DNA of 64,000 nucleotides from an uncultured Acidimicrobiia bacterium. Lineage in GTDB: Bacteria; Actinomycetota; Acidimicrobiia; Acidimicrobiales; AC-14. Of the stretch, positions 46,702 through 49,841 are shown one piece after another. Within the stretch, counting starts at the first letter, position 1; each line of letters opens with the position of its first letter. Where the stretch lies: contig CAWIIV010000019.1 in the NCBI GenBank assembly GCA_963836205.1, positions 42,042 to 106,041 on the forward strand, in the 5' to 3' direction. Below the pieces are notes generated by a model. The model did no database searches and was not told the origin of the DNA. It saw nothing but the letters and a program-made list of their open reading frames with translations. Position numbers and translations under genes: made by a program.

Positions 46702-47274
46702 TCAGGCGAAGAGGCGCAGCTGGCACAGGCGGCCGACGGCGTCGTCCCACGACGCCAGCCGGCGAGCCCGGAGCAGGGGCTGATCGCGGTTGTAGGGACG
46801 GTCGAGCAGCCACGACTGGCACACGTCGGCCAGCAGCTCGGCCTCGACGGGGTTGTCCTCGATGGTGGCGTCGACCCCGATGGCCCGCCCCAACTCGGCC
46901 TTGCCCCCCACGGCCGTGTGGTGGACCTCGTCGAGCGGCAGCCCGTGGGCCTCGAGCCACGACGCGGTGGCGGCGGCCAGGTGGGGGGCACGGGCGGTGA
47001 TGCCCACCATCCGCCACCCGGCGTGGACCAGGGTGGTGACGGCCGCGGCCGCCCCCTCGGCCACCGGGGCGGTGCGGTAGAGCTCGGTGTCGGCGAAGGT
47101 CTCGTCGAGGAAGGCGTGGAAGCGGGCCTCGGGCAGGCCCAGCTGGAGCAGCCGCAGGTCGTAGGTGCGCCAGGTGGCGGGGTGGCTCGACACCCCGAAC
47201 CGGTCGGCGATGCGAGCCGCCACCGCCGGCCCGATGTCGCACAAGACCCCGTCGAGGTCGAGACCGAGAAGCAT
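46702..47274 (-). CDS. HAD 5'(3')-deoxyribonucleotidase-like (NT5C) protein ending in QLRLFA
   Basis: GLDLDGVL motif I, ITAR, T.SWL..HGL, K, IEDN, RPYN. Confidence 0.85.
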   Translation of the reverse strand: MLLGLDLDGVLCDIGPAVAARIADRFGVSSHPATWRTYDLRLLQLGLPEARFHAFLDETFADTELYRTAPVAEGAAAAVTTLVHAGWRMVGITARAPHLAAATASWLEAHGLPLDEVHHTAVGGKAELGRAIGVDATIEDNPVEAELLADVCQSWLLDRPYNRDQPLLRARRLASWDDAVGRLCQLRLFA

Positions 47275-47280
47275 GCCCCG

Positions 47281-47302
47281 AGGCTATCGGGGGGGTGGGA
47301 CA
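47281..47302 (-). promoter_or_regulatory. RecA-NDp/PafBC-type promoter of the HAD gene (leaderless)
   Basis: Minus strand reads TGTCCC-N10-TAGCCT-N6-ATG. Confidence 0.6.
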
Positions 47303-47383
47303 CCGAGCCGCCAGCCGTGGATCGGCCGGACCCGCAATCAACCGGTCGATCCGAACACCGAGCCGCCAGCCGCGGATCGGCCG
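47300..47383. repeat. Two 29-bp direct repeats separated by a 26-bp spacer
   Basis: ACACCGAGCCGCCAGCCG(T/C)GGATCGGCCG at 47300 and 47355. Confidence 0.85.
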
Positions 47384-47456
47384 CCGGATCACGTCCTTGT
47401 GGGTGAGGCAAAGTGACGGCGCCCGGCGGCGGCGCGGCGGCGACCATCCGCGTTTC

Positions 47457-47478
47457 TGTCGCACCCCGTCGGTACGGT
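47457..47478 (+). promoter_or_regulatory. RecA-NDp/PafBC-type promoter of uvrD2 (leaderless)
   Basis: TGTCGC-N10-TACGGT-N7-ATG, compared with the consensus TGTCGG-N10-TA-N3-T. Confidence 0.7.
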
Positions 47479-47485
47479 CGAACGC

Positions 47486-49513
47486 ATGGTCGATGAGGAG
47501 CTGCTGGCCGGGTTGAACCCGGCGCAGCGGCAGGCGGTAGTGAGCGAGGCGGCACCGCTGTGCATCCTGGCCGGGGCGGGGTCGGGCAAGACCCGGGTCC
47601 TCACCCGCCGGATCGCCTGGCGGGTGGCCCAGGGCAGCGCCCTCGCGCCCCACGTCCTGGCCCTCACCTTCACCCGGCGGGCGGCCAACGAGTTGGGCAT
47701 GCGGCTGGCCCAGCTCGGCGTGCGGGAGCAGGTCGCAGCCGGCACCTTCCACGCCGTCGCCTACGGCCAGCTCCGGCGGCTGTGGGCCGACTGGGGCGAA
47801 AGGCCACCGGCCCTGCTCGACCGCAAGGTCCGGCTGTTGGCGTCGCTGCTCCCGAGCCCGGCCGGCGCCCAGGTCCATCCGGCCGACATCGCCACCGAGA
47901 TCGAGTGGGCCAAGGCCCGCATGGTGTCCCCGTCCGTCTACGAGGCGGCCGCCGCGGCCGCCGGGCGTCGGCCCCCCTTGACCGGGGCGGCCATGGCCGT
48001 GCTCTACCAGCGCTACGAGCAGGAGAAGGCCAAGCGCCACCTGGTCGACTTCGACGACCTCCTCCTCCTGTGCGCCACTGCCCTCGAGGTCGACCGCACG
48101 TTCGGCGCCGCCCAGCGGTGGCGGTTCCGGCACCTCTTCGTCGACGAGTTCCAGGACGTCAACCCCCTCCAGTTCCGGCTCCTCGAGGCGTGGCGGGGCG
48201 ACCGCTCCGACCTGTGCGTGGTGGGCGACCCCAACCAGGCCATCTACGCCTGGAACGGGGCCGACCCCGCCTACCTCGCCGCCTTCCGGCTCCGCTTCCC
48301 GACGGCCGAGGTGGTGCACCTCGACGACAACTACCGCTCGTCGCCCCAGATCCTGGCCGTGGCCAACGCCGTCCTCGACAGCTCCGCCGCCGCCACCGGC
48401 GACGAGCACGCGCCCCACCGGCTCCAGGCCCACCAGTCCGCGGGGCCGGTGCCCTCGGTGTCCTCCTGGCCCACCGACCGGGAGGAGGCGGTCGAGGTGG
48501 CCCGCGCCCTCCGCCGCCGGGCCGGCACCACGCCCTGGTCGCACATGGCCGTGCTCACCCGCACCCACGCCCAGCTGCTGCTCTTCGAGGAGGCGCTGCG
48601 GTCGGCGAGGGTGCCCTACCGCCTCCGGGGCCGCGGCGCCTTCCTCGACCAGCCCGAGATCCGGTCGGCCCTGTCCGAGCTCCGCCGTCGTCCGCCCGAC
48701 ACCCTACTGGCGGCGGCGCTGCCCGACCTGCGGGAGATGGCGGAGGAGGCGGAGCCGGAAAGCTCCGCCGGTGAACGGCGGGGCCACCTCGACGGGCTGC
48801 ACCGCATGGCCCAGGAGCATCTGGCCACCGACCCCGCGGCCAGCCTGTCCGGGTTCATGGGGTGGTTGCGGGCGGCGCTGCGAGGCGACGACGCCGTCGA
48901 CAGCGACAACGCGGTCGCCCTCACCACGTTCCACGCGGCCAAGGGCCTGGAGTGGGACATCGTGTTCCTGGCCGGTCTCGAGCACGGCCTGCTACCGATC
49001 AGCTGGGCCGAGACGCCCGAGGCCCTCGCCGAGGAGCGGCGCCTGCTCTATGTCGCCGTCACCCGGGCCCGGGTCGAGCTGCACGCGTCGTGGGCCAAGA
49101 AGCGGTCGTTCGGCGCCCGCTCGCTTACCCGTCAGCCGTCGCCCTACCTGGAGGCGGTCACCGCCGCGGTGCGCGACCTGGCCGAGGGGGGCACGGGCGA
49201 CGGGTGGCGGCGGTGGGTCGACGAGGGCCGGGCCCGCCTGCGGGCGGCCAGCGGCGGGCGCCCGCCTATGGCCGGGGCCAACGCCGATCCCGAAGTGCTG
49301 GAGGCGCTGAAGACGTGGCGGGCCCGCACCGCCCGGGCCACCGGCGTGCCCGCGTTCGTGGTCTTCCACGACACCACCCTGGCCGCGGTGGCCGAGGCCA
49401 AGCCCCGCGATCGCACCGCCCTGCTCGCCCTTCCTGGGGTCGGCCCGGTCAAGGCCGAGCGCTACGGCGACGCCGTGCTCGCGGTCGTGGCCACGTCCGC
49501 ACCCGGAGGTTGA
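47486..49513 (+). CDS. uvrD2: ATP-dependent DNA helicase UvrD2 with HRDC domain
   Basis: AGAGSGKT, VDEFQD, VGDPNQAIY, NYRS, TFHAAKGLEW, EERRLLYVAVTRA; HRDC LKTWR..A...GVPAFVVF.D.TL..GVGPVK. Confidence 0.93.
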   Translation: MVDEELLAGLNPAQRQAVVSEAAPLCILAGAGSGKTRVLTRRIAWRVAQGSALAPHVLALTFTRRAANELGMRLAQLGVREQVAAGTFHAVAYGQLRRLWADWGERPPALLDRKVRLLASLLPSPAGAQVHPADIATEIEWAKARMVSPSVYEAAAAAAGRRPPLTGAAMAVLYQRYEQEKAKRHLVDFDDLLLLCATALEVDRTFGAAQRWRFRHLFVDEFQDVNPLQFRLLEAWRGDRSDLCVVGDPNQAIYAWNGADPAYLAAFRLRFPTAEVVHLDDNYRSSPQILAVANAVLDSSAAATGDEHAPHRLQAHQSAGPVPSVSSWPTDREEAVEVARALRRRAGTTPWSHMAVLTRTHAQLLLFEEALRSARVPYRLRGRGAFLDQPEIRSALSELRRRPPDTLLAAALPDLREMAEEAEPESSAGERRGHLDGLHRMAQEHLATDPAASLSGFMGWLRAALRGDDAVDSDNAVALTTFHAAKGLEWDIVFLAGLEHGLLPISWAETPEALAEERRLLYVAVTRARVELHASWAKKRSFGARSLTRQPSPYLEAVTAAVRDLAEGGTGDGWRRWVDEGRARLRAASGGRPPMAGANADPEVLEALKTWRARTARATGVPAFVVFHDTTLAAVAEAKPRDRTALLALPGVGPVKAERYGDAVLAVVATSAPGG

Positions 49514-49544: not shown

Positions 49545-49841
49545 ATGCGTTCCTTCGATTGGCCTGGTGAGGACGGTTGGGCATACCCGGACAGTGAGAA
49601 GGAGCTGGCCGACCCCGACGGCTGGTTCGACGACGACGCGGTGGCCCTGCGGGCGTCGCCGCCCCGCCTCGACGGCCTCGACCCCCTCGAGCGGCAGGTC
49701 ATCGTGGCCCACTACGGCATCGACGGCAGCCCGCCCCGAACCATGAAGCAGCTCCACTACGACCTCGACATCCCCCGGGCCGACCTCCGCACCGCCCTGG
49801 CCGGCGGCCTGGCCAAGCTCCGAATCGAGTTCCTGGCGTAG
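49545..49841 (+). CDS. Small protein with a sigma70 region-4-like HTH
   Basis: LDPLERQVI..HYG.DG..PRTMKQL...L.........L.KLR. Confidence 0.7.
   Translation: MRSFDWPGEDGWAYPDSEKELADPDGWFDDDAVALRASPPRLDGLDPLERQVIVAHYGIDGSPPRTMKQLHYDLDIPRADLRTALAGGLAKLRIEFLA

Follow-up and report, generated by a model that had tools for sequence, protein, structure and literature searches.

Is a small phosphatase of the HAD superfamily made in response to DNA damage, and is it brought to sites of replication or repair by the sliding clamp? This question is raised by two divergent genes in a stretch of 64,000 nucleotides (nt), referred to here as the window, from an uncultured Acidimicrobiia bacterium (assembly GCA_963836205.1). 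One gene encodes a HAD protein of 190 amino acids (aa) and the other a UvrD2-like helicase. The organism is known from metagenome bins only. Its assembly comprises 25 contigs and 4.05 megabases (Mb) with 71% G+C, is 88.6% complete, and carries the locus on contig C19. An earlier note on the window had pointed to a C-terminus resembling peptides that bind the DnaN clamp, and to promoters in front of both genes that resemble those of PafBC, the LexA-independent damage activator of actinobacteria. Both promoter strings and their spacings proved exact on reading the sequence, and the C-terminus ...GRLCQLRLFA is present in the translation of the 190-aa open reading frame (ORF), where the residues before the stop codon are SWDDAVGRLCQLRLFA. 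The HAD gene, its tail, the divergent helicase gene and the paired promoter elements are thus confirmed as observations.

The interpretation that we favor, with a probability of roughly 55%, is that the gene pair is a family-specific part of the PafBC (LexA-independent) regulon of actinobacteria and that the HAD gene encodes a nucleotidase with a clamp-binding tail, divergent from the helicase. We regard its promoter and regulon part as solid and its clamp part as a hypothesis with good motivation. Each component (NT5C enzyme, PafBC promoter, clamp motif) is of a known kind. Their combination was not found in the literature searched, mycobacterial supplementary regulon tables excepted.

A capped NT5C-type phosphatase in one Acidimicrobiia family

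The HAD protein was matched by the Pfam family NT5C (PF06941) over residues 1–180 with 35.1 bits (cut-off 24.8), and by no model in an NCBIfam search. HAD motifs I–IV are present as D6 and D8 in DLDGV, T93, K125 and E139-D140. Among 20 sequences reaching down to 30% identity no change is seen at D6, D8, K125 or D140 and T93 is almost invariant, and in an alignment of 143 sequences the catalytic residues are again invariant or nearly so. An AlphaFold2 model based on the 143-sequence alignment had a predicted local distance difference test score (pLDDT) of 97.6 and consists of a Rossmann-like core with a closed four-helix cap. Such a cap is typical of small-molecule enzymes. The best solved matches in Foldseek were 3bwv, a deoxyribonucleotidase-like protein of Staphylococcus epidermidis, and the human and mouse deoxyribonucleotidases cdN and mdN, with template modeling (TM) scores of 0.70–0.79. 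In the VIA comparison 3bwv, cdN and mdN gave Z scores of 19–20.6 with root-mean-square deviations of 1.9–2.5 over 163–180 residues, and other HAD families gave Z scores of 16 or lower. A profile search of the PDB returned 3bwv with an E value of 1.3e-18 and human cdN with 2.9e-13.

Sequence and modeled structure make the protein a HAD phosphatase of the capped, small-molecule type, akin to the deoxyribonucleotidases. Phosphatase activity is very probable. The fold and catalytic residues point to action on nucleoside monophosphates, and there is about an even chance that deoxyribonucleoside monophosphates (dNMPs) are the substrate. The enzyme shares Pfam family, capped fold and aligned DxDxV, T, K and (E/D)D motifs with the NT5C 5'(3')-deoxyribonucleotidases cdN, mdN and 3bwv, but its identity to them is only 16–20%. 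No QLxLF end was found on the cdN, mdN and 3bwv chains, and it is only the Acidimicrobiia family that combines a damage-activator promoter with a helicase gene as partner. The favored functional model is Escherichia coli YjjG, although it belongs to a different HAD subfamily (IA). YjjG is a HAD nucleotidase that acts on dTMP, dUMP and non-canonical pyrimidine nucleotides, and its proposed role is to prevent mutagenic nucleotides from entering DNA (PMC8475336). Neither "DNA damage" nor "SOS" occurs in the text of that review, and a clamp motif is not reported (PMC8475336).

A homologue search generated 392 relatives at E values up to 0.001, of which 120 were listed and used for tail counts. The 120 listed homologues are 69–93% identical to the HAD enzyme. 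The C-terminal hexapeptide is QLRLFA in 104, QLQLFA in 6, QPRLFA in 4, QLPLFA in 3, and QLSLFA, QRRLFA and QPRRFA in one each. Motif position 1 is Q in 120/120, position 4 is L in 119/120 and position 5 is F in 120/120. Position 3 varies among R, Q, P and S, and 6/120 have P or R at position 2. Beyond this group relatives become scarce, with only 10 among 50% cluster representatives at E values up to 1e-30. Among full-length relatives with 36–49% identity one ends in QMRLF and one has QLTFW followed by 11 residues. About 100 more distant NT5C-like proteins that were listed end shortly after a conserved tryptophan helix, without such a word.

Loci were then compared using one genome per species, which generated 23 orthologue loci (63–91% identity) and 57 loci of distant paralogues (22–32% identity). 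All 23 orthologue loci come from Acidimicrobiia or Acidimicrobiales bins. The promoter element, ending 6–10 nt before the HAD start, and the QLxLFA tail are both present in 23/23 orthologue loci; each is found in 0/57 distant paralogue loci. The earlier note had proposed conservation of the terminal QLxLF and of an upstream TGTC-N12-TANNNT as checks, and both held. An element anchored 6–10 nt before the start was found in 25/25 upstream regions, namely the window, the 23 loci and one locus of another family. The DNA around the element is unalike among start-aligned orthologous regions. At one locus (L031) the start lies 5 codons further upstream and the element is shifted along with it. In 23/23 orthologue loci the helicase and HAD genes are arranged divergently, and the gene order is an exonuclease III gene (xthA), a small ORF resembling sigma region 4, the helicase gene, the HAD gene and a bPH/SHOCT gene. 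The helicase promoter is kept, with a conserved spacer, in 20/22 orthologue loci, a count that omits L031 because the helicase match there began at residue 133.

The HAD gene was found in 53/58 genomes of its own family, representing 16/18 genera (46/51 genomes when 7 unpublished genomes are set aside). In an order-wide sample it was found in 4/151 genomes, three of them from the same family. An orthologue from outside the family (G080, 52% identity) also has the promoter, at 7 nt from its start codon, and is paired with a divergent helicase gene that carries an element as well. The combination of NT5C enzyme, PafBC-type promoter and candidate clamp motif is confined to one uncultured Acidimicrobiia family and is nearly universal there. 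A different conserved C-terminal tail, of the type ...QLPGIDAGSDRLxRR, occurs on many distant NT5C-like paralogues (L051–L107) from other Acidimicrobiia and is absent from the family studied here.

The C-terminal tail and the DnaN cleft

Peptides that bind the sliding clamp follow the consensus QL[S/D]LF, or more generally QxxLF, and changes at the critical positions 1, 4 and 5 weaken or abolish binding (PMC12309361). One example is the C-terminal QLSLF of Bacillus subtilis PolC (PMC12309361). The HAD tail resembles such C-terminal pentapeptides in its fit to QxxLF, in the constancy of positions 1, 4 and 5 and in the cleft that it occupies in models. It differs from PolC-type clamp partners in that the bearer is a small capped phosphatase whose motif directly adjoins the fold, with no linker, and in the free protein is modeled as helical. 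The word QL.LF is rare at this position. The genome has 17,503 open frames with 120 aa or more, and only the HAD ORF has it within the last 9 residues. The ImuB-like and DinB-like proteins of the source genome carry QLGFW and QLPLPF, respectively, downstream of their polymerase domains.

The cognate DnaN dimer (369 aa, alignment of 117 sequences) was modeled together with the full-length HAD enzyme (alignment of 143 sequences). Three runs gave complex scores of 0.75, 0.73 and 0.75, compared with 0.00, 0.28 and 0.00 for controls. The score mark used is reached by 116/157 solved complexes and 2/215 mismatched pairs. Contacts agree by at least 94% between runs, and the partner has a pLDDT of at least 88. 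In the models HAD residues 184–189 contact DnaN residues 170, 172–175, 240, 242, 245, 317, 341, 343, 362 and 364–369, which sit in the conserved ATDSYRL, FPNYRQL, FNP and C-terminal LLMPVRVS segments. We take these segments to be the canonical peptide cleft between domains II and III. Modeling with DnaN had been proposed in the earlier note, and the full-length model passed its controls. Such a model lends support to insertion of the QLxLFA tail into the DnaN peptide cleft and is no demonstration of it; the chance of clamp binding is about even.

Several observations weigh against a clamp-tethered nucleotidase. A capped fold of the NT5C type favors small-molecule substrates, and no precedent for clamp tethering of a nucleotidase was found in the literature searched. 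Many clamp-peptide complexes are already among the solved structures, so the docking result may reflect likeness to them. AlphaFold2 draws residues 176–189 as one helix with pLDDT above 90, and in the free enzyme one residue only falls below 90. Structural alignment reaches model residue 187–190 at the ends of solved deoxyribonucleotidase chains. The helix and this alignment make QLRLF part of the regular final helix of the fold; a flexible linker, usual for clamp peptides, is absent. Conservation also extends past what the motif predicts: the last 16 residues have a mean conservation of 0.95 compared with 0.84 for the whole protein, and the terminal alanine, which the clamp-motif rule does not explain, is present in 120/120 listed homologues. 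Two full-length relatives with 36–49% identity, including the one with 49%, have no QLxLF-like word. The tail of the outsider G080 has no motif either and ends ...RQLVVAGNEDEVGVGLAS (also ...GRLRQLVVAGNEDEVGVGLAS). The clamp claim of the earlier note thus stands at moderate strength, sustained by conservation and docking and weakened by the helical tail, by G080 and by the likeness to solved complexes.

Much of this opposing evidence would be accommodated by a damage-inducible nucleotidase whose tail is purely structural, where QLxLFA is kept for packing or a homodimer interface and the enzyme is free in the cytoplasm. The helix, the alignment to chain ends and the conservation of all of the last 16 residues beyond the pentapeptide fit this explanation. 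So does G080, which retains Q and L but not LF and yet keeps promoter and synteny. For the naturally occurring QLPLFA variant (P0068) AlphaFold2 again predicts a helix, although the pLDDT of its last block is 86 instead of 94. A helical wheel, in contrast, places Q185, L188 and F189 on the face opposite W176, V180 and L183, so that with a structural tail these would be hydrophobic residues left exposed. In 8/120 listed homologues motif position 2 or 3 is a proline, the conservation pattern equals the clamp rule, docking of the full-length protein passes its controls, and distant NT5C relatives show no such tail. We consider the structural explanation rather unlikely.

A second alternative retains the clamp and changes the substrate. 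The HAD enzyme could be a 3'-phosphatase, tethered through QLxLFA, that cleans blocked DNA ends and works outside free-nucleotide metabolism, an option that the earlier note had also named. It would draw on the 3'-phosphatase side of 5'(3')-deoxyribonucleotidase chemistry. Its substrates would be the 3'-phosphates that oxidative damage or lyases leave at nicks and gaps, and its partners the co-induced UvrD2-like helicase and the neighboring exonuclease III gene. If true, this clamp-guided DNA-end phosphatase would be of a kind not described. HAD-type DNA 3'-phosphatases are of the polynucleotide kinase-phosphatase type. They share the common HAD chemistry with the enzyme, and a role at damaged DNA ends would suit clamp tethering, but the enzyme differs from them in its closed four-helix cap. 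The PNK3P-type family gave no Pfam match to it at E values up to 0.01, and PNK3P-type structures were not among the 50 best fold matches listed. The capped fold runs against this explanation, and a DNA 3'-phosphatase was rejected as the principal interpretation for this fold and the lack of a match to the polynucleotide-phosphatase family. It is improbable.

The invariant ...LFA end resembles that of an SsrA tag, for which reason a third alternative was retained at low odds. The tail would be a C-terminal degradation signal (...LFA-COOH) that makes a damage-induced and potentially harmful nucleotidase short-lived through ClpXP-type proteolysis. The alanine that ends all 120 listed homologues would then be explained, and the tag encoded by the transfer-messenger RNA of the genome, AKPHLALAA, shares with the HAD tail an end of the form hydrophobic-x-hydrophobic-x-Ala. 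Members of the mycobacterial PafBC regulon are actively removed after stress, though by pupylation (PMC8223512). The likeness amounts to three residues, and the invariant Q and the match to QLxLF are left unexplained. SsrA recognition depends on the last two alanines, and the penultimate residue here is F. A degradation signal is accordingly a long shot.

Promoter class and the PafBC regulon

The published PafBC motif of mycobacteria is tGTCgg(N10)tA(N3)T, which comprises a -26 element and a canonical -10 without a -35; the GTC triplet is strictly conserved and read by PafB (PMC8635444). Further background on PafBC is given elsewhere (PMC6789036, PMC8223512). The promoters of the HAD and helicase genes have the identical 22-nt geometry, including the GTC triplet, the -10 and the lack of a -35 (PMC8635444). 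They differ from mycobacterial PafBC promoters in the letters after TGTC and in their host, a deep-branching uncultured Acidimicrobiia family. Positions 5–6 of the -26 element are CC or GC instead of gg, which is a further point against our interpretation; the gg letters are no more than 50% conserved in the mycobacterial motif itself (PMC8635444).

The whole 4.05-Mb assembly was scanned for TGTC-N12-TANNNT and for the same words at spacings 6–11 and 13–19. Spacing 12 generated 44 sites, compared with 10–20 at each other spacing. Sites were classified as start-adjacent if they lay 3–11 nt ahead of the start codon of an ORF with 80 aa or more. 22/44 sites were start-adjacent at spacing 12, and 1–5 at other spacings. 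At least 22 promoters of this class are predicted to be leaderless in the source genome, a difference from the mycobacterial PafBC regulon. In the HAD and helicase genes the -10 ends 6–7 nt before the ATG, so both messenger RNAs (mRNAs) should be leaderless, judging from sequence.

The ORFs downstream of the 22 sites are the HAD and helicase genes plus 20 others, which were scanned with Pfam. Replication and repair are represented by DnaX, a RadA/Sms-like ATPase, a UvrD/PcrA helicase with an intein, a second UvrD+HRDC helicase, Lhr, a ResIII/DEAD helicase and a PD-(D/E)XK nuclease. The RadA/Sms-like assignment is a prediction from a zinc ribbon with KaiC/AAA_25/DnaB_C domains. Nuclease, mobile and defense functions are represented by four Uma2 proteins, a LAGLIDADG endonuclease, a weak HNH match, an integrase, an IS1595 transposase and AbiEi. 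The remainder are an extracytoplasmic function (ECF) sigma factor, a phosphoribosyltransferase-domain protein and two proteins without a Pfam match. Sites that are not start-adjacent were also sampled. For 12/22 such leadered sites the first plausible downstream ORF was chosen, making these assignments tentative. Five of the 12 have repair-, competence- or toxin-antitoxin-type domains (Helicase_C_3, ComM-like, ComEA-like, oligonucleotide-binding (OB) fold and SocA). One precedes an ammonium transporter and is probably a chance site, and in 6/12 the chosen ORF gave no domain match.

The recA gene has the element 42 nt ahead of its GTG start. About 25 nt upstream of the element lies the word GAAC-N4-GTTC (L108, G000:C6:436458-440240, positions 1365-1428), which is presumably the actinobacterial SOS box. 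The pairing of an SOS-box-like word with a PafBC-type element corresponds to the dual arrangement of mycobacterial recA. LexA is encoded in the source genome. Dual LexA/PafBC control of the HAD and helicase pair was considered and dropped, because GAAC-N4-GTTC is absent from the whole window.

The regulator is present as well. Two tandem WYL genes are directly preceded by pafA (TIGR03686, 3.2e-210), prcA and prcB. One encodes PafC (HTH_PafC+WYL+WCX, 2.3e-29) and the other PafB (WYL+WCX), which settles the earlier note's check for pafBC in this genome. The source genome thus resembles the mycobacterial PafBC system in that pafBC adjoins the Pup-proteasome genes and in the kinds of genes in the regulon, recA included. 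Since geometry, gene set and regulator agree, the two promoters were taken as PafBC-type, in all likelihood correctly, and PafBC dependence and damage induction of the two genes are highly likely. The PafBC-type promoters claimed in the earlier note are strongly supported by the excess at spacing 12, the repair gene set and the presence of pafBC.

Several side observations concern the promoter class. In the source genome (G000) leaderless elements directly precede Uma2 genes at L002, L004, L005 and L020, the AbiEi gene at L013, the integrase gene at L008, the IS1595 transposase gene at L019 and the HNH and LAGLIDADG genes at L009 and L010. An element was also recorded at L120 (SocA/Panacea). 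The damage activator of this Acidimicrobiia lineage appears to control mobile and defense-type genes in addition to repair genes. The UvrD/PcrA-like helicase with a PafBC-type promoter and an intein (L014, G000:C17:229276-232655) has 1095 aa, and its Intein_splicing match covers residues 568–604 with 33.4 bits, just below the cut-off of 35.8. The second UvrD+HRDC helicase (L015, G000:C20:157809-160555), also behind a leaderless promoter of this type, has 885 aa and an N-terminal extension of 180 residues without a Pfam match. An identical motif site with an identical 1284-aa ORF is found at two contig ends (G000:C15:84-105 and C16), and is either a repeat or an assembly duplicate. This ORF has no Pfam match.

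The mobile and defense-type genes suggest another explanation, in which the HAD enzyme would serve in anti-phage defense or abortive infection, depleting nucleotides once damage signals prophage induction or infection. The same promoter class precedes the four Uma2, AbiEi, SocA/Panacea, HNH, LAGLIDADG, integrase and transposase genes, and HAD phosphatase effectors of CRISPR type III immunity have been published (PMC12715507). The HAD gene is unlike defense islands in its fixed chromosomal place beside uvrD2 and xthA (23/23 loci) and its near-universality in the family, and an effector role is highly improbable. It is just as improbable that TGTC-N12-TANNNT represents ordinary constitutive promoters or those of another regulator. 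In favor of this alternative, letters 5–7 of the element are mostly NCA by eye where mycobacteria have gg, and a third WYL protein is encoded on contig C23. Against it, the geometry is identical to the published motif (PMC8635444), repair and recombination genes including recA dominate the set, pafBC is in its canonical locus and no -35-like word is present.

The helicase, its surroundings and a proposed role

The helicase was matched by the Pfam families UvrD-helicase (5.7e-56), UvrD_C (1.9e-38) and HRDC (1.6e-21), and its NCBIfam scores fall well short of the equivalog cut-offs for PcrA, Rep and UvrD. The earlier note had called it uvrD2. Mycobacterial UvrD2 has a tetracysteine module between its core and HRDC. 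The label holds for the architecture of a UvrD core with HRDC, but the tetracysteine module is absent, since the sequence has three cysteines in all and no CxxC pair. The UvrD+HRDC protein of L015 is likewise without this module.

The start codons of the two genes have 211 nt between them (Table 1). The first copy of an intergenic repeat overlaps the edge of the HAD -26 element. The repeat may be a duplication remnant or the site of a second regulator. Directly after the helicase gene lies an ORF of 98 aa (window 49545-49841, + strand) with a sigma-70 region 4 match of 20.2 bits, below the cut-off. It is at the same position in 20/23 orthologue loci, and its product may be a small sigma-4-like or anti-sigma-type regulator.

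Table 1. Positions of the two genes, their predicted promoters and other features within the window.
Feature	Position	Strand	Remarks
NT5C-type HAD phosphatase gene	46702..47274	-	190 aa; predicted leaderless start at 47274
Codons of C-terminal hexapeptide QLRLFA (residues 185-190)	46705..46722	-	candidate clamp-binding motif
HAD-gene promoter, PafBC-type	47281..47302	-	TGTCCC (47302-47297, -26), N10, TAGCCT (47286-47281, -10), N6, ATG (47274-47272)
Helicase-gene promoter, PafBC-type	47457..47478	+	TGTCGC (47457-47462), N10, TACGGT (47473-47478), N7, ATG (47486)
UvrD2-like superfamily 1 (SF1) helicase gene	47486..49513	+	675 aa; UvrD core and C-terminal HRDC
29-nt direct repeat, 2 copies	47300-47328 and 47355-47383		97% identity, spacing 55, intergenic

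A mechanism for a PafBC-controlled, clamp-binding nucleotidase can be proposed. DNA damage would activate PafBC, for which the trigger in mycobacteria is single-stranded DNA (PMC11804915). PafBC would then adapt the housekeeping RNA polymerase to the two hybrid promoters, each a -26 TGTC with a -10 TANNNT, and helicase and phosphatase would be produced together from divergent leaderless mRNAs. Induction would coincide with the release of damaged and normal dNMPs by excision and resection. The enzyme would dephosphorylate (deoxy)nucleoside monophosphates, providing house-cleaning or pool balancing during repair in the manner of YjjG, and its QLxLFA tail, in the DnaN cleft, would place it at clamp-loaded replication or repair sites.

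No paper was found that links PafBC with a nucleotidase or haloacid-type enzyme; the mycobacterial supplementary regulon tables, which possibly list a HAD enzyme, were outside the scope of this search. The deoxyribonucleotidase-type phosphatases are thus an enzyme class without a PafBC link in the literature searched. The PafBC regulon is known mainly from mycobacteria, and its promoter logic (-26 element plus -10, predicted leaderless) reappears unaltered in a deep-branching Acidimicrobiia family known from uncultured members. This family offers an independent view of the content of the regulon, including many mobile and defense-type genes. If the tail binds DnaN, the HAD enzyme would be the first nucleotide-pool-type enzyme shown on a bacterial sliding clamp. 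It would then be asked, for this family, whether nucleotide sanitation or end cleaning is done locally at repair sites.

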